NCBI GenBank assembly: GCA_963716725.1 | Contig: CAVQUB010000012.1 | Span: 64,001-128,000 of the forward strand | DNA from: an uncultured delta proteobacterium | Lineage (GTDB): Bacteria; Myxococcota_A; Polyangia; Polyangiales; Polyangiaceae | Reading direction: 5' to 3' | DNA: 64,000 bases | Shown here: piece by piece, positions 2,601-14,561 of the stretch | Numbering within the stretch: the first letter of the stretch is position 1 | Layout of the letters: each line of letters starts with the position of its first letter | Notes under the pieces: generated by a model | What the model saw: only the letters and a program-made list of their open reading frames with translations | Databases searched by the model: none | Told to the model about the DNA's origin: nothing | Translations under genes and position numbers: made by a program

Positions 2601-2852
2601 GGCGGTCTCCCCCAACGCCGGTGCGCGCGGGCGGTGGCGCTTTGCTCAGACCGGAGCGCGGGTGGCGCATGCCCCCGCGCACGCGGCGGGGGGAGACGCG
2701 CGTTTGGGCGTGTCGGTGGCCGTGCTGGGGGGAGCGGAGTCGACGGTGTTGCCGGCGCGCACACTCCCGTGTCGTGACTCGATACCACCGCGGCCCTTTC
2801 CCTGGCGTTTGGGTGACCTACCGAATGGCTCAACGCATGCAAGTGGCGCTGC

Positions 2853-3380
2853 ATGTCCTTGTCTCGGGTCGGAACCGTCCGCGCCGCGGTGGTCCTCGCC
2901 ATGTCTCCGGTGGCGGCGCTGCTCGCTTGCGACGTGGGAGACCTGGACTTCCAGTTGTTCAGCGGCGCTGACGGGGGCTCGGGTGAGTCCGGGTGGTTCA
3001 AAGGGGAGTGCAAGACCGACCAGCACTGCGAGGCGGGGCAGTGCTGTGTGCACTTTCTCGGCGGGTCGTGCGAAGACTTGGTTTGGACCAGTTCGACGCA
3101 GCCCATCTGTTTCAACTCTGGGGACGATCACGACGGGCTTTGCGCCTGTTTCCCGCCCCAGGCCCAGCCGATGTGCCCACCGGCGATACTCGAGCCCCCG
3201 GTGAAGCCCGAGTGCGCGCCCCGCCCTTACGTGAAGTGCGCGATGCTCTGCCCCGAGCAGGTCTGCGCGTGTTCCACGCAAGAGCTGGATCTATCTGACG
3301 TTGGAGTCGAAGTGCCGAGCTGTCCCCCGTCGGACTGGTCGATTACGTGCCCAAGCGCAGACGGCGGAGTCGCCGATTGA
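2853..3380 (+). CDS. Cys-rich lipoprotein
   Basis: Signal peptide with lipobox LLAC, many Cys. Confidence 0.7.
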   Translation: MSLSRVGTVRAAVVLAMSPVAALLACDVGDLDFQLFSGADGGSGESGWFKGECKTDQHCEAGQCCVHFLGGSCEDLVWTSSTQPICFNSGDDHDGLCACFPPQAQPMCPPAILEPPVKPECAPRPYVKCAMLCPEQVCACSTQELDLSDVGVEVPSCPPSDWSITCPSADGGVAD

Positions 3381-3391
3381 CGAGGCGCTTC

Positions 3392-3603
3392 GCGCGAGCC
3401 CGCCACCCTCACCGCACCCGAACCCAAGTCCCCGGTCCCCGATCGTCGCCGCTGCGCACGCTGTGCCACGCATCGGGCACCTGGGGCTCCGTCCACGAAA
3501 ACAGCCACTTCGCGTCGCGGACCGAGAGGTTGACGCAGCCGCCGCTCTTCGGCTCACCGAAGCGATCGTGCCAGTAGGCCGCATGCAAGGCGAAGGGCAT
3601 GTG
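3392..3603 (-). repeat. 212-bp exact duplicate of the L,D-transpeptidase 3' end (6929-7140)
   Basis: Base-by-base identity; encodes [11 protein letters not shown]...TWVRVR* plus 17 bp downstream. Confidence 0.95.
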
Positions 3604-3635
3604 TCTTCCTGCCCCAACTCGCCGCCGCTGCACTC
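3604..3635. repeat. Junction motif, copy 2
   Basis: TCTTCCTGCCCCAACTCGCCGCCGCTGCACTC; 3608-3628 identical to 38216-38236. Confidence 0.8.
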
Positions 3636-3711
3636 CTTCGAGTATCGCGAAGCGCGTCGCGGCGTCGGTCTTCCCCAAACTCGGGCTTTGCCCGAGCGGG
3701 GAAGACGGGCG

Positions 3712-3930
3712 TGGGTTCCGAGGTACTTCGGCGTCCTTTCGAGGCACTCGTCGCGCCGCCGACTCGTCGTGCCTGCTCCCCCGCCCGACGCGACCGCGCA
3801 CAAGCCCCCGCCCGCCCGCGGCGATCAGCTTGAGCTGCTCGGCGAGACAGACGACGCACCCGCTCCGCGAGCCCCTTGGGGATCCCCGAAGGGGGACAAA
3901 CGACGGGCCTGGCTCCTGGCGCATGTGTTG
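3712..3930 (+). mobile_element. IS91-family (rolling-circle) transposase C-terminal fragment
   Basis: [18 protein letters not shown]...RRAWLLAHV resembles the IS91 RY.GV and W..LL..V motifs. Confidence 0.6.
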
Positions 3931-4184
3931 ACCACGCGAAGGTGCGCCTGCCCGAGCAGTTGGTGCTGGGGTTCGGGAAGGAGTGAGGCAGGCGCCAAGC
4001 GCCTCGCCGAGCGCGAACGTGTGTCCTCTGCAGCGCGCGACGCCGAAAATCCTGCCGCGCTCTACCTTTGCGGGGCCCCGAGCGGGTTCACGGGCCAGCC
4101 CTCGACCGCGCGCATGCCTGCGCGTACTGTTCGACTCGGTGGGTTTTGGCAGTTCGTTTTCCCTACGCGCCCGTCGTCCTGAGC

Positions 4185-4736
4185 ATGAGCGTGTTCTTGT
4201 CATGCTCAGGACTCGTCGCGCAGGACTTGATAGGTGCGGATGCCGCCCCGGAACCCGATGCTGGCGACGGGGCGGCTGCTGCTGACGGAGTAGTGGACTC
4301 TGGTGACGGATTAGATGCTGCTGACGGGGTGGCAAACGCAGATGGAGTCGCAGGTGCCGACAGCAGCTGGTCCGACGCCACCGCGGCGACTGACGCGCCT
4401 CAAGGGTGTGACGGGGATGAGCATGAAACGTCTTTGGGGTGCGTTTCGTGCGAGGCTGCGTTGGAGCTCGTGGCATCGACGATCGGGTCCTTGGTGCTGA
4501 ACGCGAAAACCTGCGACAAAGCGATTGACTGCGCACTAGCAGCCGTATCTGTCGTCCCGTGCTACAAACGTTGCGCAGAGCCTGTCTCTGCGAAGCACGT
4601 AGATACGCTGTCAGGCCAACTCAAGGAAGTCGCGAAGGGCGATCTCTGTTTCTGCGCAGACAAGCCTCCGGACTGCATTGACGCATCCCTGCAAAAAGTC
4701 GGTTGTCTTGGCGGGCTCTGCCAATTCCTTCCTTGA
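4185..4736 (+). CDS. Cys-rich secreted or lipoprotein-like protein with atypical codon usage
   Basis: DA/DG-rich linker, Cys-rich C-terminus, many A/T-ending codons; start uncertain. Confidence 0.6.
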
Positions 4737-5181
4737 TCGTCGTCCGCGAGAGAGCGTGGCTGTTCGACCATCTACGGTCACGGCGCCCACACCCCGAACG
4801 GGCACGTGGATGCATACCACGCGAACACGAGACCCAAAGCCCACCACGCGATGGACCGGGCCATCGGCCACCGCGAAAGCAGCCATGCGAGGGCGACGAC
4901 GAGATAAGCGTTTGCCGCTTGGTAGCGGGCAAACGAAATGAGTGAAGGGGAAAAAAACGGCAGCAACCAAAGTGCTAACCCAAGCCCCGCCAATGCGTAG
5001 AGGATTCCCGCGCGGCGGCGAACAAAGAAGAGGGGCAAAGTGACAACGGCAGCTAAAACGCTCCTGCGTGCGGTATCTCCTCCTTCCTACACACGGCGCC
5101 CAGCGCTGCACCGCCCTGGCGCAACTGCGAGGGTCGCGGGCACGGCCTGGAGCGACGCGCGGTGGGCGCTATCACCGGCGC

Positions 5182-6345
5182 ATGCGGGGACGATGGCGTG
5201 GGTTGAAAGGGCTGTGGCTCGCGTGCGCGCTGGGCGCCTGCTCGTCGGAAGAGACTTCCCCAAGCGGCGCGAGGTGTACACCCGGGCAGTCGGCGCAGTG
5301 CGCCTGCGCCAACGGGCAGACCGGCGCCCAGATCTGCCAGGGCGACGGCACGTTCGCGGGCTGTGTCTGCGGCGGGAGCGGTGGTGGCGCGGGGCACGCG
5401 AGCGGAGGAACGGGAGGCCAGTCGACCGGGGGCGGGGCGGGCCAGTCGATCGGCGGGACGGGCGGTTCCGTGCCCGGCGAATCTCTTACCGGCGAGTGGA
5501 GCAAGGTGTTCCCGGGCGGCTTCGAGATCGCTGCGCTGGCGGTCGATGCTTCCGGGACGCTGGTCGTGGCTGGCGCGAGCTCGGCTCCGGTGGATTTCGA
5601 GAACGGTCCGGTTGGCAAGACGATGACCGGCTGGGCCAAACAACTGCTGATCGCTGGCTTCGACTCGAGCGGCCAGCGCAAGTTCGCCTTCGCCAAGGAT
5701 GCCGGGCGCATCGACGCGCAAACGTTGTCCATCCGACCCGTGGCCCAGGATCGGATCGTGGTTCAGGGCGAGACCACGGTGATCAGCCAGGGCTCGGGCC
5801 CGAGCGTGAAGTACACGCTCGTCTGGCCGTGCGGAACGGCACCTTCCAGCATCGGGAGCGGCGTACACTTCGTCGTCGAGCTCGACCAGGTGGGCAACTG
5901 CATCTGGGATCACACCTATCCGGCGGATGGCTACTCTCAGTTGCCGACCGCCGTGGTGTCTCCGAAGGACGGCTCGGTGTTCGTCACCGCCGTTGGGCAG
6001 TGGGGGACGCCGGTGACTCGGCGCTACCTCGCAAACGGCACTGAGCGCTGGCAGAAGGCGTTCGGGGGCAGCGCGCTCACCGCTCTGTCCACCGGCCATG
6101 TGCTGCTCGCGAGCTACAATCCGTTGACGCTACCTTCGGGAACGGTCGCCGGCCTGTTCGCGCTGGCTAGGCTGGACAGCACGGGCGGCGTCGTCGCTGG
6201 AAACGCCTGGGGCACCAGTGTCTACGACCCCACGCGCCAGCTCGTGGGCTTCGACATCGGCGGCAACGATCTCGTGGCGCTCGCTTTGCGCTACACCGGT
6301 ACCGTCGACTTGGGTGGCGGGCCTCGCACCTCTACCAATGCTGGC
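5182..6345 (+). pseudogene. Lipoprotein with Cys-rich module and beta-propeller (SBBP-like) repeats, 3'-truncated
   Basis: Lipobox LGAC, CTPGQSAQCAC module, Gly linker, WSKVF/WQKAFG repeats; coding character is lost after GTVDLGGGP. Confidence 0.7.
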
Positions 6346-6945: not shown

Positions 6946-8664
6946 TCACCGCACCCGAACCCAAGTCCCCGGTCCCCGATCGTCGCCGCTGCGCACGCTG
7001 TGCCACGCATCGGGCACCTGGGGCTCCGTCCACGAAAACAGCCACTTCGCGTCGCGGACCGAGAGGTTGACGCAGCCGCCGCTCTTCGGCTCACCGAAGC
7101 GATCGTGCCAGTAGGCCGCATGCAAGGCGAAGGGCATGTGGAAAAACTGCGTGAAGGGGACCTCCGAGAGGTAGTAGCTCTTGCGCTCGGGGTCGGGCGT
7201 CATGGTCGTCGATCGGTGCTTCCACTCGATGCGGAAGGTGCCCGTCGGCGTGGTGAACTTCGCGGGCGCGCCGTTGTCGCGTTTGTAGCCGTTGGCGCCC
7301 GGCGAGATCAGCGTGGCGAAGATCGCGCGATCGCCCTCGTAGGCGACCAACGTGCCCCTGAAGATGCTGATGTCCACCCACTTCTCGCCGGCGGCTAGCG
7401 AGAAGCCTCGGGGCGGACGCTCGTCGATCATCGTGGCGTCGCGCTCGCGGATGAAGCCGCCGTCGGTCGTCTCCAGGTAGCGGACGTTGCGCTCCTTGCG
7501 GTAGCGGCCCGTCAGGCCCATCCAGGACAATCGCGTCCAGCTGCCCGGCGTCTCGCGCATCGCACCCGGCGTGGTGTCCTCACGAAAGCCGGCCAGCGGA
7601 TCGGGGTCGTCCGCGCGTGGTTCGTGAACATCGAGCTCCTCCTCGAAGCTCACCGGGGTCAGATCCGAGGCCGTTGCGATCACGCGGTACTTGGGCTTGT
7701 CGTCGTGCCTCACGAAGGCGAGGGGCAAGCGCACGCGCTCGCCGTCGATCTGCACTCCCACGAAGGGCGAGGGCTCGAGGGGGGCGAGTTTGTCCTTGGG
7801 GGCGACCAGCAGATCGTCGGTCAGGACCCAGCTGCGGCCGTCGACCACGAACTCGTCGGTCCACGCGATGGCCGAGCGAGCGGGGATCCACTTGGCGAAG
7901 GGGCGCGTCTCGTGAGGTGCGCTGGCCAGCGATGCAGGGGAGAGGGCACCGGTGGCGAATACGTTCGGGGGCGCGCCGGTGGCAGCGGCGAGATCGACGT
8001 CCTTCAGCGCCGCGGGAACGCGGACCGGATCGCGACCCTCGCGCTGCGCGGTGCGGAGCTCTTCGAGGCGGGCGAGGTGAGCGTCGAGCTCGAACTCGAC
8101 CCGGCGTTGCTCGTCGGCGGTCGGGATCTTCCGATAGAGCAGCCCCTCGCGCGAGGTGCTCCAGCCCAGGGGCGCCGCGGCATCGAAGTCGCCGTGGTGG
8201 CTGCGCTTGGCGACGATGATCGGGTGCGAGTCCACGTCGAGCGTGGTACTCGGATCGAGACAGACGTAGCCCGCCGGCTCGACCGCGTACCAGCCCTTGC
8301 TGCAGCCATCGGTCCCCTTCGAAGCAGCGTCGCGCAGGGGCACGACCGCGCCGATGTGAAGCTGGCCGATCTCAGGCGAGGTTTGGCGGGGGCTCTGCCG
8401 AACGAAGACGCGGGACGACAGCGCGCCGATGCGCGGCGGTGGCGGCGTTGGCGCGACCTGAGCGGCGGGCGCGACCTGAGCGGCGGGCGCGACCTGAGCG
8501 GCGGGTGCCGGACCGTCGGCGGCGAGTGTCGTGGTGGCTGCGGCGGTGGGCTCGGACTCGGTCGTTGTCGACGCCGCGGGTGACGGAGTGACGGATGACG
8601 GCCGACAGGCCGCGAGCACGAGCGCGAGCGCGGTGCCCAGGACCAGCCGACGTTCCAGAGACAT
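6946..8664 (-). CDS. L,D-transpeptidase (YkuD family) lipoprotein
   Basis: Lipobox [34 protein letters not shown]; 18-bp tandem repeat x3 (AAQVAP). Confidence 0.9.
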   Translation of the reverse strand: MSLERRLVLGTALALVLAACRPSSVTPSPAASTTTESEPTAAATTTLAADGPAPAAQVAPAAQVAPAAQVAPTPPPPRIGALSSRVFVRQSPRQTSPEIGQLHIGAVVPLRDAASKGTDGCSKGWYAVEPAGYVCLDPSTTLDVDSHPIIVAKRSHHGDFDAAAPLGWSTSREGLLYRKIPTADEQRRVEFELDAHLARLEELRTAQREGRDPVRVPAALKDVDLAAATGAPPNVFATGALSPASLASAPHETRPFAKWIPARSAIAWTDEFVVDGRSWVLTDDLLVAPKDKLAPLEPSPFVGVQIDGERVRLPLAFVRHDDKPKYRVIATASDLTPVSFEEELDVHEPRADDPDPLAGFREDTTPGAMRETPGSWTRLSWMGLTGRYRKERNVRYLETTDGGFIRERDATMIDERPPRGFSLAAGEKWVDISIFRGTLVAYEGDRAIFATLISPGANGYKRDNGAPAKFTTPTGTFRIEWKHRSTTMTPDPERKSYYLSEVPFTQFFHMPFALHAAYWHDRFGEPKSGGCVNLSVRDAKWLFSWTEPQVPDAWHSVRSGDDRGPGTWVRVR

Positions 8665-8769
8665 GGCGCGAATATCGCGGAGGACCGCTGATCCGGCCCA
8701 GATCCTTGAGACCGAGCTCGATGGGCGGCTCGATCTCGCGCGAATCATCGTGGGGCGAGCAACGGGCGC

Positions 8770-10947
8770 TCAGAACGGCTTGCCCGGTTTGACCGGAGGC
8801 CGGGGTGCCATCTCGGGACGCGGCGGCGGGGGGCGCGGGGCCATCTCGGGACGCGGCGGCGGCGGACGCGGCGCAGTGTGGGTCGGCGGGGGAGGCGGGG
8901 GAGCCGTGGCGTCGCGGGGCGAGGCCGCGTTGGCGACCTCGGTGCGCGTGAAGCCGATCTGGAAGCGCTGCCCGCGCACGTTTGCATCGAAGGTCAGCTT
9001 CCGGGTCGCGTCCACGATGGCGCGCTCTCGATCGGGGTCGAGCCGAGGGTGCAGCACGGTGACCTTCGATACGCTGCCATCGGTCGCGATCCAGAGCTCG
9101 AGGTCGACGCTGTCGGCGGGCACCACGTTTCGTGCGAGCAGGGGCAGCAGCTCTTCGTCGAGGATGGGCTTGATCAACGCGGCCGGACCCTGGGGCGGTG
9201 GCGTGTCGCGGGGCGCTGGCGTCGGCGTCGGCGTCGGCGCTGCATCCGGCACGTTCCGTGGCGGGCCGGAGGCGGTGGCCGTCGGGATCGCCACCATCTC
9301 GGTGGGGTGGCTCTTCTCCTTGCAGCCTGCCGCGCCGAGCGTGACCGTGGCGACGAGCCCAGCGCTGGCTGCCACCTGCATGAAGCCGCTGGATTTCTGC
9401 CGCCTGGTGGGCCGCAGCGGGACCGTGCGGATCTCGTCCAGGAGCTCCTTGACCTTGCGCCCGAGCCGCTCGTTGTCCGCGATCACCCGCCCTCGCAGCT
9501 CGGCGGTGAAAGCGTCCCGATCGGCCGGGCCGGTCAGGCGCGCGATGCCAGCGATGAGCGCCTCGAGGTGGTCGCAGGTGTTGACGTTCACCTCGACGAT
9601 CTGTTGTTTCACCTTGCGTCGGATCGCGTCGTTTGGCTCGAAGAATCTGGCGAGCAGCTGCTGCTCGTAGTCGATCTGCATCGCCAGGTGGTGCAGCCCC
9701 TCGTCACCGTAGTTTCGTGCCTCGAAGGCGGGATACATGATCTCGAAGGCGGTCTGGGCCCGCGCGTCGGTGATCTGGTAGTCGTATCCCCAATAGTCGC
9801 CGATCAGACGATTGTCGCGGCGCAGTCGCTTCTCGAGGGGCGTGCCCGCGTAGATCTCGGTGCGACAGAAGTTCATGGCTTGGTCGGGGTGGGCCCGCAG
9901 GAACGCCACGTTTCCGGCGAGGTCTTCCAGGGTCGAGTCCGGGTTGAGCACCAAGAGGTTGAAGCAGGTATGGATCTCCAGGCCGCCCAGGATCTCGAGC
10001 GCGCGCAGGTTGTCCTCGACGGTCTGACCGCGCCCGAGGCGCCGCAGCGACTCCGCCGTGCCCGCTTCGAGGCCGAGAAAGACGCGGAACATGCCCATCT
10101 CGCGCAAGAGCTCGAAGACCTCGGCGTCCACCACGTCCGGCCGACACTTGATCGCGAAGGCGATGGGTGTCGTCACGTTACGCGCGGCCAGCGCCGATCG
10201 GAGCGCGTGCATGCGTTCGAGCATCGCGACCTTGTCGTCGAGCACGAAGTTGTCGTCGTGGAAGTTGAAGATGCGCACCCCCTGGCCGTAGAGCAGCGCC
10301 ATCTCGTCGGCGAGGTGCTCCGGTGCGCGCAGGCGCAGGCGATCGCCGCCGCAGAGCCGATGCCAGGCGGCGATGGAGCAGAAGGAGCAGTTGCGCGTGC
10401 AGCCCCGGGACGACAGGATGTTGGTGATGGGGATCCCGAGGTAGTCGTCGAAGGGATGCTTGCGGGGCGGGAAGGGCAGCACGTCGAGATCGGGGGGCTT
10501 GATCGCGTCCGCGTTCTTCACCAGACCATCTCCCTGGCGCCAGACCAGGCCCGCGACGCTCGACGGATCGGGCAGCACGTGGACCAGATCGCACAAGATG
10601 GGCTCACCTTCGCCGCAGGCCACCGAGTCGAAGGCGCGCACGTCGTTCAAGAGCTGATCGGGGTGCATGGCGGCGAAGTGGCCACCGGCGATCAGATGGC
10701 CGGGGAAGCCCAGCTCCCTCACTCGCACCGCGAGCCGAGCGAACTCCCTCGCGCGGTAGGTGAAGACCATCGAGAAGCCCACCAGCGGCGCGCCCGAGGC
10801 GACGATCTGTCGCGCGGCCTCCTCCACTTCGTCGGCGCCGTTGAAGACGACGGTCGTGACTCGGTGTCCCGCGTGTTCGAGCGCTCCTCTCAGGTAGCGC
10901 ACTGCCAGGTTCTCCTCGAACTCCGCACCGACCAGGACGACGTGCAT
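8770..10947 (-). CDS. B12-binding radical SAM enzyme with C-terminal lipoprotein/TonB-C-like extension
   Basis: N-terminal B12-binding domain (LIAGGHFA, GEGE), SRGCTRNCSFC, FHDDNF, GLEAG; internal hydrophobic segment ending AAGC. Confidence 0.9.
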   Translation of the reverse strand: MHVVLVGAEFEENLAVRYLRGALEHAGHRVTTVVFNGADEVEEAARQIVASGAPLVGFSMVFTYRAREFARLAVRVRELGFPGHLIAGGHFAAMHPDQLLNDVRAFDSVACGEGEPILCDLVHVLPDPSSVAGLVWRQGDGLVKNADAIKPPDLDVLPFPPRKHPFDDYLGIPITNILSSRGCTRNCSFCSIAAWHRLCGGDRLRLRAPEHLADEMALLYGQGVRIFNFHDDNFVLDDKVAMLERMHALRSALAARNVTTPIAFAIKCRPDVVDAEVFELLREMGMFRVFLGLEAGTAESLRRLGRGQTVEDNLRALEILGGLEIHTCFNLLVLNPDSTLEDLAGNVAFLRAHPDQAMNFCRTEIYAGTPLEKRLRRDNRLIGDYWGYDYQITDARAQTAFEIMYPAFEARNYGDEGLHHLAMQIDYEQQLLARFFEPNDAIRRKVKQQIVEVNVNTCDHLEALIAGIARLTGPADRDAFTAELRGRVIADNERLGRKVKELLDEIRTVPLRPTRRQKSSGFMQVAASAGLVATVTLGAAGCKEKSHPTEMVAIPTATASGPPRNVPDAAPTPTPTPAPRDTPPPQGPAALIKPILDEELLPLLARNVVPADSVDLELWIATDGSVSKVTVLHPRLDPDRERAIVDATRKLTFDANVRGQRFQIGFTRTEVANAASPRDATAPPPPPPTHTAPRPPPPRPEMAPRPPPPRPEMAPRPPVKPGKPF

Positions 10948-11032
10948 GCGACCACCTCCCTCTTGGGTGGCGGCAGTCTGCGCCATGCGAGGGGCCGCCG
11001 ACACCCGCGCGGCGATGAACTATGCTGCGGGG

Positions 11033-11377
11033 ATGATCGATCTCATTTGCAAGCGCACCTGAAGCACCTGCCGCAAGGCGGTCGCCTTGCTCGAAGAAAA
11101 CAAGATCGCCTACCGCTACCGGGAGTACACCGAGGAGCCCCTCGACAAAGCCGAGCTCGTGAAGGTGCTCGGCTACCTGGGGCTCGGGCCCAAGGACGTG
11201 CTGCGCAAGAACGACGCCGCGTTCAAGGACAACGGGCTGACGGGCAACGAGAGCGACGCCAAGCTGATCGCGCTCATGGTCGCTCATCCCACTCTTTTGC
11301 AGCGGCCCATCGGAGTGAAGGGCAAGCGGGCGGTGCTCGGACGACCTCCGGAGAACCTGCTGAACCTCGCGAAGTAG
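11033..11377 (+). CDS. arsC: ArsC/Spx-family reductase, predicted selenoprotein (Sec at TGA 11060-11062)
   Basis: MIDLICKRT-U-STCRKAVALLEE...LLQRPI...LGRPPE; the TGA sits at the catalytic Cys of the family CSTCRKA motif. Confidence 0.85.
11073..11090 (+). promoter_or_regulatory. Putative bacterial SECIS element
   Basis: GCAAGGC-GGTC-GCCTTGC: perfect 7-bp stem, GGUC loop starting 18 nt after the UGA. Confidence 0.75.
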
Positions 11378-13475: not shown

Positions 13476-14561
13476 ATGAATACGCGAAACCGACCCGTTT
13501 TCGAGCTCATCTCCAGTCTCGTCTCCGGACTGCGTCCGGACCGGTCCGGACGGATCTTCTGCCTTTCGCTCGGGGCGATCGTCCTGGGCTGCTCGGCCGC
13601 GCCGGACGAGATGCTCGGCGACGAGCCCGAGACCATCACTCCCGGCGGTGAAGATCTGAAGGGCTGCCAGGGAAAGGCCTCGTCGAGCATCCCGGGTTCG
13701 GGATCTTACGTGCTCACCACCTTCGGAGGGCCGTCGGAGCCCCAGCCGCTCGCCTGCGGCGGGCACTCCAAGTCGGGTAGCTGGTACTACGCGGCGTCGC
13801 GGCAGCGATACGGCTGCGGCACCCGCATCCGTATCATGGCCAACGGCAAGTGCGTGGTGGCTCAGACCGACGACTACGGGCCGGACGTGTGCGTCGAGAA
13901 AGCTGCCGGCATGCCGGTGATGGACGTCTCCCCGCTGGTGAGCAAGCACTTGTTCGGCGAGTCCGGGCTCGGTTGGTCCGACAAGAAGAAAGTCAGCGTC
14001 GAGGTGGCACCGTCAGGAACGCCGCTCGGCCCCTGCGCGAGTGACAAGCCCGGTGGCGGCGGATCGAATACGGGCGGCGCGGGCGGCGGGGCTGGATCGA
14101 ACACCGGCGGCGCGGGCGGCGGGGCTGGATCGAACACCGGCGGCGCGGGCGGATCGAGCAGCGGCGGGTCGGCGGGCACCGGCGGCAAGGGTCTCGGGTG
14201 TACCCCGAAGCTGTGCGGATCGAGCAGCCCCACCCAAGACGGCTCCGGAGCGGAGTGCTACTGCGACGGCGGCTGCACCGGGTACGGCGACTGCTGCTCG
14301 AACTACGTGTCCGTGTGCGGTGGCAGCAGCGGCTCCGGTGGCAGCGGCGGTTCGGGTGGCAGCGGCGGTTCGGGTGGCAGCAGCGGCTCCGGGGGCAGCA
14401 GCGGCTCCGGGGGCGGCAAGGCCTGCTCCAGCGATGGGGCCTGCAATCCCGGCAATGACGGATCGGGCCTGATCTGCCTGAGCGGGCTCTGCGTGCCCGG
14501 GTGCAAGGTGAACGCCCAGTGTCCGGGGATCAAGACCTGCAAGAGCGGCAAGTGCGTGTGA
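13476..14561 (+). CDS. Lipoprotein with RlpA/expansin-like DPBB and somatomedin-B-like modules
   Basis: Lipobox VLGC; CGTRIRI..GKCVVAQTDDYGP; CYCDGGCTGYGDCCSNY; Gly-Ser repeats. Confidence 0.7.
   Translation: MNTRNRPVFELISSLVSGLRPDRSGRIFCLSLGAIVLGCSAAPDEMLGDEPETITPGGEDLKGCQGKASSSIPGSGSYVLTTFGGPSEPQPLACGGHSKSGSWYYAASRQRYGCGTRIRIMANGKCVVAQTDDYGPDVCVEKAAGMPVMDVSPLVSKHLFGESGLGWSDKKKVSVEVAPSGTPLGPCASDKPGGGGSNTGGAGGGAGSNTGGAGGGAGSNTGGAGGSSSGGSAGTGGKGLGCTPKLCGSSSPTQDGSGAECYCDGGCTGYGDCCSNYVSVCGGSSGSGGSGGSGGSGGSGGSSGSGGSSGSGGGKACSSDGACNPGNDGSGLICLSGLCVPGCKVNAQCPGIKTCKSGKCV

Follow-up and report, generated by a model that had tools for sequence, protein, structure and literature searches.

A B12-binding radical SAM enzyme joined by an internal lipoprotein-like signal to a tail that may be its own substrate

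A single gene in the window (the whole 64,000-nucleotide stretch of DNA analysed here) encodes a B12-binding radical SAM enzyme followed, in the same frame, by a segment resembling a lipoprotein signal peptide and by a proline-rich tail in which a short glutamate-centred motif recurs. This architecture is common to 164 non-identical homologues from several diderm phyla. The explanation that we prefer, and to which we give an even chance, is a self-contained enzyme-substrate fusion: the class B enzyme would modify its own tail before that tail leaves the cytoplasm, probably to be set free as a lipoprotein. What has been observed (how the protein is built and how far this is conserved, the statistics of the motif, and split versions of the system) is presented first.

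Architecture of the fused gene

The open reading frame spans 8770..11004 on the minus strand if it is read from a GTG, and the ATG at 10947 gives the 725-residue protein P0001. Judged from the sequence, ATG 10947 is a better start than GTG 11004, because the Shine-Dalgarno-like GAGGGAGG lies 8-15 nt upstream of it and because Met1 is conserved in at least 90% of an alignment of 118 sequences. Read from this codon, P0001 consists of a B12-binding and radical SAM enzyme (residues 1-511), a basic stretch, a 20-residue alanine-rich hydrophobic segment, AAGC, SHPTEMVAIP, a proline-rich linker, a TonB/TolA-C-like domain and two copies of RPPPPRPEMAP. The features are as follows, the Pfam domain coordinates having been shifted by 19 from the 744-residue (GTG-start) form.

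8770..10947, minus strand: whole gene, a 725-residue B12-binding radical SAM enzyme with an exported-type tail (P0001); stop codon 8770-8772
10955..10962, minus strand: Shine-Dalgarno-like GAGGGAGG, read directly from the sequence, 5' of ATG 10947
10585..10917, minus strand: B12-binding domain, residues 11-121 (Pfam PF02310, 47.0 bits against a cut-off of 32.1)
9916..10413, minus strand: radical SAM core, residues 179-344 (Pfam PF04055, 67.6 bits against a cut-off of 29.5)
9415..9765, minus strand: C-terminal helical region of the enzyme, residues 395-511 (AlphaFold2 helices 395-412, 418-436, 440-468 and 474-511)
9394..9414, minus strand: basic n-region RPTRRQK, residues 512-518, from the sequence
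9325..9384, minus strand: alanine-rich, signal-peptide-like hydrophobic segment FMQVAASAGLVATVTLGAAG, residues 522-541, from the sequence
9322..9324, minus strand: Cys542 of the lipobox-like AAGC, with Lys next, from the sequence
9283..9312, minus strand: first motif, SHPTEMVAIP, residues 546-555 (Glu550 and Pro555 conserved in at least 90% of 118 sequences)
9202..9282, minus strand: Pro/Thr/Ala-rich linker, residues 556-582, from the sequence (pLDDT below 50 for residues 555-577)
8908..9201, minus strand: TonB/TolA-C-like globular domain, residues 583-680 (pLDDT 84-97)
8803..8868, minus strand: two tandem RPPPPRPEMAP, residues 694-704 and 705-715, ending 10 residues before the C-terminus

An earlier note on this DNA had listed RPTRRQK, the hydrophobic segment, a Cys codon at 9322-9324, HPTEMVA and the tandem repeats, and we located every one of them. 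Neither a cobalamin riboswitch nor any other RNA element was found near the gene (the sole match was to radC RNA, at 22.4 bits against a gathering score of 40), and a promoter and terminator scan of the gene's surroundings gave nothing above chance. YkuD and ArsC genes lie near the gene in the window and are not conserved beside its homologues.

A predicted class B radical SAM enzyme

The N-terminal part carries both sequence hallmarks of class B radical SAM enzymes, namely an N-terminal B12-binding domain and a radical SAM core with a CxxxCxxC cluster motif. The latter reads CTRNCSFC (residues 183-190; 10378-10401, minus strand), and its C183, C187 and C190 are invariant in 118 sequences. The full-length AlphaFold2 model, with a mean pLDDT of 85.8 and a block of 87-98 over residues 401-510 in the helical region, matches the folds of OxsB (E 7e-20), MgmA (E 4e-19, TM 0.72 normalised to the target), TsrM, CysS and TokK, with E-values from 7e-20 to 3e-16. 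Sequence and model together lead us to assign the first 511 residues to a cytoplasmic cobalamin-dependent (class B) radical SAM enzyme, for which cofactor binding and SAM cleavage are predicted.

Its assignment to any named family is another matter. Of 28 NCBIfam families matched, the 25 listed all scored below their cut-offs, so that no named equivalog was reached; the best scores were those of BchE (95.8 against 481.35), HpnR (82.1 against 650) and TIGR04014 (66.1 against 360). No curated family model was found to cover the fused enzyme and no paper on such a fusion was found in the literature listings, nor, judged from search listings, was anything relevant on fused or self-modifying radical SAM enzymes; 'PPEPAH', 'EPAH motif' and 'EMAP motif' had 0 occurrences there.

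A glutamate-centred motif recurs in the tails

One homologue search returned 358 matches, and the tails of the 164 homologues introduced above are strongly enriched in a single pattern. Across the 164 mature tails we counted 429 copies of E.[AVIM][AP].P, where 200 shuffles gave 21.6 on average and 33 at most, and the enzyme parts have four; the narrower EM[AVI][AP].P, counted in 120 homologues, has 243 copies in the tails against 0 in the enzyme parts. The longer form H..EM[AVI][AP].P occurs once in a six-frame translation of the 7.9-Mb genome, and that occurrence is this gene. Loss of the tail or of the motif from homologues had been named beforehand as grounds for abandoning the idea of a substrate in cis. 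Both are retained, with at least one copy of E.[AVIM][AP].P in 145 of the 164 tailed homologues and at least two in 117.

The placement of the copies is regular: the first lies a median of 10 residues past the hydrophobic segment, and the last ends a median of 9 residues before the C-terminus. His occupies position -3 in 234 of the 429 copies and Met position +1 in 285, while P0001 itself has Pro at -3 in two of its three motifs; its two RPPPPRPEMAP copies are encoded by a 33-nt unit repeated in tandem (2.0 copies, 93% matches). On these counts the motif, which we write [TS]HxxE-M-[AVI]-[PA]-x-P, appears to be the one constant of the tails, standing at both ends of the mature tail.

Structure prediction does not bring the motifs and the enzyme together. 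The full-length AlphaFold2 model leaves both motif regions disordered (pLDDT 27-46) and outside the active site, which counts against the substrate reading; a complex prediction for residues 1-515 with tail 541-585, SAM and a 4Fe-4S cluster (score 0.02, mark 0.32) gives no evidence either way.

The same genome encodes two more fused paralogues, with different acidic proline-rich repeats (PPPDPLPPP in one, MV[AV]D[PA][LP]P in the other). Such a difference in repeats would be expected of cognate enzyme-substrate pairs. Among 3,322 neighbouring ORFs, no neighbour gene is conserved beside the tailed forms, and the fused system thus looks self-contained.

Tail-less relatives with separate motif proteins

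The earlier note had asked whether split versions occur, with the enzyme and a small motif protein encoded separately. They do. Our survey of 79 loci included 11 complete tail-less relatives, and in ten of these the gene directly downstream, on the same strand, encodes a motif-repeat protein. The repeats belong to a related Glu-centred motif, whether xEPAH, ATExxAYP or EM[AV]P: at eight of the loci the downstream product has xEPAH repeats, and at locus L073 it has five repeats of the ATE..AYP type. The split forms support a functional coupling of enzyme and motif.

The tenth, locus L023 from Planctomycetota, is placed inside the fused clade (99* SH-aLRT). Its enzyme ends exactly where the hydrophobic segment would start, and the locus encodes two secreted proteins, each of which starts GEM[AV]A.YGV right after a normal N-terminal signal peptide. 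It is important to note that this split arrangement with a signal peptide comprises one locus with context (L023) and one 525-residue enzyme without context (P0116).

The partners with xEPAH repeats occur in Geomonas-like bacteria and Bathyarchaeota, and they follow the same layout as the fused tail, that is, motif, domain, motifs. When the partner domain was compared by VIA-align with 48,161 chains, all six top-ranking chains were TolA C-terminal domains (Z 6.7-4.6 over 83-90 residues), these Z scores, at most 6.7, lying in the range that the tool describes as common. Foldseek found no match to the partner model at E of 0.001 or below, and Pfam and NCBIfam assigned the partners to no family. 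Between the fused-tail domain and the partner domain there is no significant sequence homology (hhalign probability 5%), and a partner profile run against 1.84 billion representatives gave 153 proteins at E of 0.001 or below, with no fused enzyme among the 150 listed. Because the domains are without detectable sequence homology, what ties the split forms to the fused ones is the short motifs, the class of fold and the adjacency of the genes. The xEPAH-type enzymes also have one motif-like GPEMHWFDG in their own C-terminal extension. Their partners are without a signal peptide, from which it would follow that export is not part of the ancestral function. Split relatives include the cultured Geomonas oryzae S43 (locus L050).

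Export signal or membrane anchor

The junction between enzyme and tail has a consistent character across the family. In 151 of 157 homologues the 15 residues ahead of the hydrophobic segment carry a positive net charge (median +3, against -1 downstream), and the segment itself has a median length of 16 residues and a median Kyte-Doolittle value of 1.69. A Cys stands at or near its end in 131 of the 164 homologues; in the 15 commonest contexts the Cys always follows A or G, and in 61 of the 131 it is itself followed by K (45) or R (16). A PROSITE-like lipobox core pattern is matched by P0001 (...TVTLGAAG-C) and by 104 of 157 homologues. In its basic n-region, alanine-rich h-region and [AG]-Cys, often with Lys or Arg after the Cys, the junction is like the precursors handled by Lgt and LspA, and AAGC is similar to the lipoboxes LAAC, GAAC and TVAC of neighbouring genes in the window. 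It is unlike such precursors in position, however, for their signal peptide is N-terminal and that of P0001 starts at residue 512 of 725, behind a folded enzyme of 511 residues. We found nothing relevant in the literature on an 'internal lipobox' or 'internal signal peptide', judged from search listings.

These features speak for an export function of the internal hydrophobic segment, a reading that was put forward in the earlier note and is strengthened by the ordinary signal peptide that L023 has at the equivalent position. Cleavage as a lipoprotein cannot be a universal step in the homologues, because the Cys is missing in 33 of 164. A Tat signal was considered and rejected: RR occurs within 18 residues upstream in 81 of 164 homologues and RR followed by any residue and two hydrophobic ones in 21 of 164, and P0001 has TRRQKSSGF. 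The segment was not modelled as a helix by AlphaFold2 (pLDDT below 50).

The homologues that are missing the Cys would sit well with another account, which had also been offered beforehand as a membrane-anchored enzyme with a periplasmic sensor. Here the segment would be an uncleaved signal anchor, the enzyme would act at the membrane on another substrate (a lipid or an envelope precursor), and the tail, a periplasmic TonB/GltG-like module, would localise, sense or couple, with motifs that bind protein, peptidoglycan or metal. TonB, TolA and the myxobacterial GltG/AgmX proteins are built from a TM-like segment, a proline-rich spacer and a TonB-C-like domain, an order that P0001 mirrors. Residues 578-680 are modelled at a block pLDDT of 84-97 in the order helix-strand-strand-helix-strand-helix. 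Among 31 members, the tail domain is matched by the NCBIfam models AgmX/PglI C-terminal (5/31, best E 4.3e-8), tonB_Cterm (4/31) and GltG (2/31), and a profile of the 31 tail domains run against PDB sequences gave 12 matches at E of 1 or below, all but one of them to TonB C-terminal domains (11 of 12; best E 0.0012). The score of P0001 for TIGR01352 is, however, 22.2 bits, below the cut-off of 27.1, so that we take the description of the domain as TonB-C-like to express a remote likeness. The best NCBIfam matches of the enzyme also speak for an anchored enzyme, since enzymes of lipid and tetrapyrrole metabolism are among them (BchE, HpnR, ladderane-lipid type), all far below their cut-offs.

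The anchored-enzyme account is weakened by the fact that the domain can be dispensed with while the motif persists: the domain is present in 94 of 118 homologues, and the other 24 all retain one to five motifs. In addition, the motif-repeat partners of tail-less relatives are without a signal peptide, which suggests that the motif protein there works with the enzyme in the cytoplasm; the xEPAH partners carry a TolA-like fold in such a protein, unlike TonB, TolA and GltG/AgmX. No ExbBD or TolQR genes were seen to be conserved near the homologues, a further difference from those systems alongside the sub-cut-off scores. The hydrophobic segment, being short, alanine-rich and usually terminated by [AG]-C, is nearer to a cleavable lipoprotein signal than to a stable helix. 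We therefore regard an anchored enzyme as unlikely, albeit still worth keeping in view.

Substrate or accessory

A second possibility accepts the coupling of enzyme and motif and reads it differently. Gene adjacency tells of coupling and not of its direction, and the tail or partner might be an accessory (a regulator, scaffold, pseudo-substrate or metal/cofactor chaperone) to an enzyme whose true substrate lies elsewhere. Residues that could serve as metal ligands are frequent in the motifs, as the His at -3 and the Met at +1 illustrate, along with Trp, Met, Glu and His in xEPAH; but the His is dispensable, as the Pro at -3 in two of the motifs of P0001 makes plain. The GPEMHWFDG of the xEPAH-type enzymes could be autoinhibitory. 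In the fused forms, on the other hand, the export signal would put an accessory tail across the membrane from the enzyme that it was to assist, and the many copies per protein, their disordered proline-rich setting and the differences between paralogues are typical of modification sites. An accessory role seems to us improbable.

There is virtually no chance that the fusion is an artefact in which loss of a stop codon, a frameshift or faulty assembly has run an enzyme gene and a lipoprotein gene together, the earlier note having allowed for a lost stop codon or sequencing error: although the junction resembles the start of a lipoprotein gene, with Met523 just ahead of the hydrophobic core, a lost stop codon or sequencing error is ruled out because the same continuous frame recurs in all 164 non-identical homologues, which come from several phyla and from many assemblies, and six short stand-alone tail relatives all appear to be fragments of fused genes. 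An internal translation start at Met523 was rejected as well, the aligned column not being conserved as a possible start codon.

Discussion

We return to the fused tail as a substrate of its own enzyme. On this reading the substrate would be the C-terminal 184 residues after Cys542, with motifs at both ends flanking the TonB/TolA-C-like domain, and the motifs would be modified in the cytoplasm while the tail is still tethered to the enzyme. The most likely reaction would be C-methylation at or beside the invariant Glu, which we favour because most class B enzymes catalyse it; a Glu-to-His or Glu-to-aromatic crosslink would be the alternative. The internal basic n-region, the alanine-rich h-region and A-A-G-C would then work as a lipoprotein-type signal peptide, leaving the enzyme inside and the tail outside. 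Cys542 would be lipidated, and the chain cut before it, by Lgt and LspA, which would free a modified inner-membrane lipoprotein while the enzyme stays where it was made. Being fused, a cytoplasmic enzyme that depends on cofactors would be sure to meet its target ahead of export, with the proviso that membrane insertion of the tail during its synthesis would leave the enzyme little time to act on it. The idea of the tail as a cis-encoded substrate has thus gained from the coupling seen in ten of the 11 tail-less relatives and from the reading of the segment as an export signal; the modification of the motifs, its chemistry, the translocation, and the cleavage and lipidation at Cys542 are what we infer.

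Several known systems share parts of this scheme. Class B enzymes with peptide or protein substrates, among them MgmA, TsrM and the methylases of polytheonamide and bottromycin, have the same B12-binding and CxxxCxxC core; MgmA is the glutamine C-methylase of methyl-coenzyme M reductase. P0001 differs from them in reaching no equivalog, BchE being the best, and no peptide-acting class B enzyme is known to be joined in one chain with a substrate or an export signal.

Borosins of the OphMA type consist of an enzyme fused to its own core peptide, and split forms of them exist. P0001 is like them in having the enzyme and the presumed substrate in one chain, with the substrate C-terminal, and in occurring as fused and split forms within one family. 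The single polypeptide is observed, the coupling of enzyme and motif is backed by the split forms, and modification in cis would complete the parallel. The borosin enzymes, however, are SAM-dependent alpha-N-methyltransferases, whereas P0001 is of the B12-binding radical SAM type; borosins have no internal signal peptide or lipobox, and their one core peptide contrasts with the folded domain and repeated motifs of the presumed substrate here.

A third comparison is with anSME (AtsB) and QhpD, cytoplasmic radical SAM maturases of exported proteins. They resemble the proposed system in their logic, since the protein has to be modified by an iron-sulfur enzyme in the cytoplasm ahead of its passage across the membrane. 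They are separate enzymes of the SPASM type, lacking a B12 domain, whose targets have ordinary N-terminal signals or dedicated exporters, and we know of no fusion among maturases of this kind.

We would also put forward, tentatively and at rather less than an even chance, a wider reading in which these proteins represent a widespread class of self-modifying radical SAM enzymes, with a new modification of a Glu motif, an internal lipoprotein signal and release of a modified envelope lipoprotein by signal peptidase II, the split xEPAH relatives sharing the same chemistry. On that wider reading no radical SAM enzyme fused to its substrate would have been known before, nor any natural protein that matures at an internal lipobox.

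Protein-modifying radical SAM enzymes are a main source of newly found post-translational chemistry, and here a large family, spread over several diderm phyla, offers a ready-made pairing of enzyme and probable target. The probable site is marked by a motif of 6-10 residues and is directly accessible to mass spectrometry, and Geomonas oryzae S43, being cultured, is a tractable system for testing the chemistry of the split form. If the self-modification reading is true, the problem of timing would be solved by tethering the enzyme to an export-bound protein with the export signal between them, and a natural lipoprotein signal peptide would be acting in the middle of a protein, which bears on substrate recognition by Sec, Lgt and LspA. 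The outcome would be that Myxococcota and Planctomycetota have a set of modified envelope proteins, bearing TonB/TolA-like domains, to which present annotation is blind.

The enzyme part

The gene is a minus-strand open reading frame that runs from a GTG at 11004 to 8770. The ATG at 10947 is the better start, because GAGGGAGG lies 8–15 nt upstream of it and conservation of the initial Met in the 118-sequence alignment is 90% or more; initiation there gives P0001, a protein of 725 aa. G+C content is ∼62–74% across the gene, with no break at the junction of enzyme and tail. The closest named relative, 71% identical by tblastn and 76% identical in the first 504 alignment columns, belongs to a metagenome-assembled genome of the Polyangiaceae.

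P0001 matches the Pfam models for the B12-binding domain (47.0 bits, cut-off 32.1) and the Radical_SAM domain (67.6 bits, cut-off 29.5), and all three cysteines of CTRNCSFC (residues 183–190) are invariant. The AlphaFold2 model, built with 118 sequences, has a mean pLDDT of 85.8, with residues 1–511 nearly all above 90. Foldseek matches this model to OxsB (E 7.3e-20), TsrM, CysS and TokK, and to MgmA, the methyl-coenzyme M reductase glutamine methylase (E 4.1e-19, TM 0.72 normalised to the target). Among NCBIfam equivalogs none is reached; BchE comes closest, with 95.8 bits against a cut-off of 481. Taking the domain matches together with the lack of an equivalog, we conclude that P0001 is a class B radical SAM enzyme belonging to no described subfamily. 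It has the class-defining features tested for class B radical SAM enzymes and would work like a protein or peptide maturase of that class.

Layout and conservation of the tail

The enzyme is continued in the same polypeptide by the following elements.

Tail elements of P0001 (window coordinates, strand, element, residues)
9394–9414 (−): RPTRRQK, residues 512–518
9325–9384 (−): hydrophobic segment FMQVAASAGLVATVTLGAAG, residues 522–541
9322–9324 (−): Cys542
9283–9312 (−): SHPTEMVAIP, residues 546–555
9202–9282 (−): Pro/Thr/Ala-rich linker, residues 556–582
8908–9201 (−): folded domain, residues ∼583–680, pLDDT 84–97
8803–8868 (−): two RPPPPRPEMAP copies, a 33-nt tandem repeat, residues 694–715

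All coordinates in the earlier note proved right. In the AlphaFold2 model the folded domain has the order helix-strand-strand-helix-strand-helix; disorder (pLDDT <50) is seen in the hydrophobic segment and in the two motif regions.

A protein search for homologues gave 358 hits, the best 120 of which are 584–880 aa long except for two (495 and 525 aa), and scanning a single genome of each species turned up 79 loci. With duplicates removed, 164 homologues have both tail and hydrophobic segment. By record titles, which are rough phylum labels as most belong to metagenome bins, the 57 fused loci named in the enzyme tree are from Myxococcota (28), Planctomycetota (11), Acidobacteriota (4), Lentisphaerota (2), Verrucomicrobiota (2), Fibrobacterota (1) and Spirochaetota (1), with four labelled Pseudomonadota and four whose phylum is not named. 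This conservation across 164 tailed homologues and multiple phyla excludes a lost stop codon or an assembly error as the origin of the fusion.

Two genes flanking the fusion in the window are not conserved beside its homologues. Directly downstream (6946–8748, −) is a YkuD L,D-transpeptidase gene (58.6 bits, with a weak SH3_3 match), whose product has an internal Met followed by a lipoprotein-type signal (MSLERRLVLGTALALVLAAC); at 11087–11377 (+) is a divergent small ArsC-family protein (46.2 bits, cut-off 24). Further away (13476–14561, +) is an ORF for a secreted-looking protein, unrelated to the fusion, whose low-complexity repeats are GGAGGGAGSNT and GSGGS and whose C-terminal part is rich in Cys.

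A probable internal lipoprotein-type signal

The segment connecting enzyme and tail is built like a lipoprotein signal peptide. Among 157 homologues with an uncharged stretch, the median stretch is 16 aa long and the median Kyte-Doolittle value is 1.69. Net charge over the preceding 15 residues is positive in 151 of them (median +3), and its median over the following 15 is −1. A Cys stands at the end of the hydrophobic segment in 131 of the 164 homologues and is absent in 33, and A or G precedes it in the 15 commonest contexts. The AAGC of P0001 is much like the ends of the N-terminal lipoprotein signals of its window neighbours (LAAC, GAAC, TVAC and AWGC). In 61 of the 131 cases the Cys is followed by a basic residue (45 Lys, 16 Arg). 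In Myxococcus, Lys after the lipidated Cys is a mark of inner-membrane retention. Twin-arginine export was rejected as a family feature, RR being present in 81 of 164 and RR-x-hydrophobic-hydrophobic in 21 of 164. The resemblance of the segment to a lipoprotein signal, together with the N-terminal signal peptide that takes its place at the split locus L023, makes it most likely that the tail of the fused forms is exported.

A Glu-centred motif recurs in the tails

The aligned tails have a single recurrent element, [TS]-H-x-x-E-M-[AVI]-[PA]-x-P-P. Among 120 proteins, the tails together contain 243 matches to EM[AVI][AP].P and the enzyme parts none; 102 proteins have at least one copy and 18 have none. 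The looser pattern E.[AVIM][AP].P has 429 copies in 164 mature tails, against a mean of 21.6 and a maximum of 33 in 200 composition-preserving shuffles; the enzyme parts have four. Of the tails, 145 have at least one copy and 117 at least two. The Glu is fixed by this search pattern itself, but in the alignment Glu550 and Pro555 also reach 90% conservation or more. Met occupies position +1 in 285 of the 429 copies and His position −3 in 234. The median distance from the hydrophobic segment to the first copy is 10 residues, and that from the end of the last copy to the C-terminus is 9; variants among the homologues include MEAAPPPP, HMCEMMM and ETVA. In six frames of the whole 7.9-Mb genome, H..EM[AVI][AP].P is found once, in the fused gene.

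Of 118 homologues, 94 have between one and three copies of the folded tail domain. The earlier label 'TonB-C-like' is fair as a statement of remote likeness but not of family membership: a profile of 31 tail domains finds 12 PDB sequences at E≤1, 11 of them TonB C-terminal domains (best E 0.0012), while the window's own domain scores 22.2 bits against a cut-off of 27.1. Among the 31 domains, five match the AgmX/PglI C-terminal model (best E 4.3e-8), four tonB_Cterm and two GltG. An anchored enzyme with a periplasmic TonB/GltG-like module is a possible reading of such a protein; every one of the 24 homologues without the domain keeps one to five motifs.

Split forms pair the enzyme with a motif-repeat protein

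Among 3,322 clustered ORFs around homologues there is no conserved neighbour of the tailed forms, and the only large neighbour cluster, seen at 8 loci, consists of genes that immediately follow those for tail-less enzymes of 581–602 aa. Across the 79 loci, a gene for a motif-repeat protein adjoins 10 of the 11 complete tail-less enzymes; the search for split versions that the earlier note had proposed thus gave a positive answer.

One type of partner, with xEPAH motifs, occurs at L046, L049, L050 (Geomonas oryzae S43), L051, L053 and L065 and at the Bathyarchaeota-labelled L055 and L075. These proteins start with FRPPPEPAH, followed by a folded domain and two to four further xEPAH copies; they have no signal peptide and match no Pfam or NCBIfam family. 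Searched against 1.84 billion representatives, an xEPAH profile picks up 153 proteins, in some of which the motif recurs ∼ten times. The family (P0121–P0270, e.g. P0149 and P0165) spans 200–480 aa, with up to ∼ten or more [WMR]xEP[AV]H copies. The enzymes of L046, L049, L051 and L053 (591–596 aa) have a motif-like element, GPEMHWFDG, GPEMGWVDG or SPDMGWVDG, in their own C-terminal extension; it resembles EPAHWFD of the partners, and may be left over from a fused ancestor or serve as a pseudo-substrate.

At the Omnitrophota-labelled L073, a 521-aa enzyme is followed 22 nt downstream by a 419-aa protein that lacks a signal peptide and has a TonB-C-like stretch and five GGPATE[IVM][IV]AYPSR-type repeats. 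At the Planctomycetota-labelled L023, the 525-aa enzyme (2642–4228) stops exactly where the hydrophobic segment would start, and two downstream genes (4261–4980 and 5291–6016) encode proteins with an ordinary N-terminal signal peptide, then immediately GEM[AV]A[RK]YGV; both finish in a related element. Several of six further relatives of these secreted proteins end in EM[AV]PVYGIRP, and one has a lipobox-like SSGC. A second, distinct enzyme of 525 aa, P0116, has the same end point. The exception is L077:7983–9584, from a Polyangiaceae bin, a distant tail-less paralogue (40% identity) whose end overlaps the start of a gene for a Gly-rich lipoprotein (MATTGRGLTIALATAGLMAC...) with no evident Glu motif; this pair may belong to a different system.

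The AlphaFold2 model of the Geomonas-type partner (61 sequences) has a mean pLDDT of 82.5, and Foldseek finds nothing for it at E≤0.001. In a structural search of its domain against 48,161 chains, the top six are all TolA C-terminal domains (Z 6.7, 5.7, 5.5, 5.4, 4.8 and 4.6; rmsd 2.9–4.5 Å over 83–90 residues), with a TonB C-terminal domain next (Z 4.5); Z values below 8 are common in such a search, and what counts here is that the hits agree with one another and cover the target domain in full. Fused tail and split partner therefore share a layout of motif, TolA/TonB-like domain and motifs. At the sequence level, hhalign detects no homology between the two domains (probability 5%).

Phylogeny and paralogues

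In a quick maximum-likelihood tree of 68 enzyme cores, the seven xEPAH-type enzymes form one group (SH-aLRT 99), with L073 and L077 near it (82). The fused enzymes separate into a group of 43 rows, to which the window enzyme belongs, and another of 16. The L023 enzyme also falls within the larger group (99), and its locus has the look of a fused gene that was split secondarily. As the tree is unrooted, the overall order of fusion and fission is not readable from it.

The same genome has three paralogues. On contig C3 (∼239,965–241,488, −, plus ∼400 nt downstream) is a fused paralogue (38% identity). It, too, has a basic stretch, a hydrophobic segment and a lipobox-like LAC; its short Pro-rich tail bears PPPDPLPPP repeats instead of the Glu-Met-Ala-Pro motif. 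Another on C15 (∼317,497–319,201, −; 38% identity) has a lipobox-like GATGC and MV[AV]D[PA][LP]P-type repeats (e.g. HFVADPLP, QMVVDALP, SMVADPPP); it has a frameshift near query residue 344, and may be a pseudogene or an assembly error. The third, on C9 (∼73,334–75,106, −; 32% identity), has neither tail nor hydrophobic segment, and no motif protein is evident directly after it in the translations examined. The fused paralogues carry different acidic Pro-rich repeats, as cognate pairs would; enzyme and tail are inherited together, so that these repeats are not independent evidence. A frameshift is also seen in a fused homologue on a 1.3-Mb Planctomycetia contig (L071:7830–9673), likely from an assembly error; it falls between enzyme core and remainder, and the downstream frame encodes a hydrophobic segment of the usual kind, GAAGC and three copies of the motif.

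A proposed function

On the simplest reading, the motifs are most likely the enzyme's modification sites, because they are short, repeated, paralogue-specific, set in disordered Pro-rich segments and always tied, fused or adjacent, to one radical SAM family. The earlier note had suggested a tail that serves as substrate of its own enzyme; the split forms give this suggestion partial support, as comparative evidence for the coupling of enzyme and motif. Counting against the reading, the AlphaFold2 model leaves the motifs undocked to the enzyme, the Cys is absent in 33 of the 164 homologues, the xEPAH partners are not exported, and what joins split and fused forms is short motifs, fold class and adjacency. 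It is also possible that the motif protein is an accessory or metal-binding partner.

An Ala-rich, moderately hydrophobic signal behind a folded domain of 511 aa would favour post-translational export, which would give the tethered enzyme time to act on the tail; cleavage at Cys542 by the lipoprotein pathway would then release a lipoprotein of 184 aa. Given that the xEPAH partners stay unexported, export is something added to the system and not its core. As to chemistry, methylation is the default reaction of class B radical SAM enzymes, and the nearest solved protein-modifying relative is, by the title of PDB entry 9ccb, a glutamine methylase. A Glu-to-His or Glu-to-aromatic crosslink is also conceivable: in the fused motif a His precedes the Glu by three residues, in xEPAH one follows it at the same distance, and in the L073 repeats a Tyr follows it at a distance of four.

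The likeness to borosins is limited to the idea of an enzyme fused to its substrate, and that to anaerobic sulfatase-maturing enzymes and QhpD to the modification of a protein before export. For none of the three, enzyme subfamily, tail and xEPAH partner, was a curated family found in Pfam or NCBIfam, nor were they found by full-text literature search, whose coverage leaves out most subscription journals; the fusion architecture is an unusual one that, to our knowledge, is undescribed. The modification hypothesis is directly open to mass spectrometry and, if the reading is true, what has been found is a radical SAM protein maturase together with its target.
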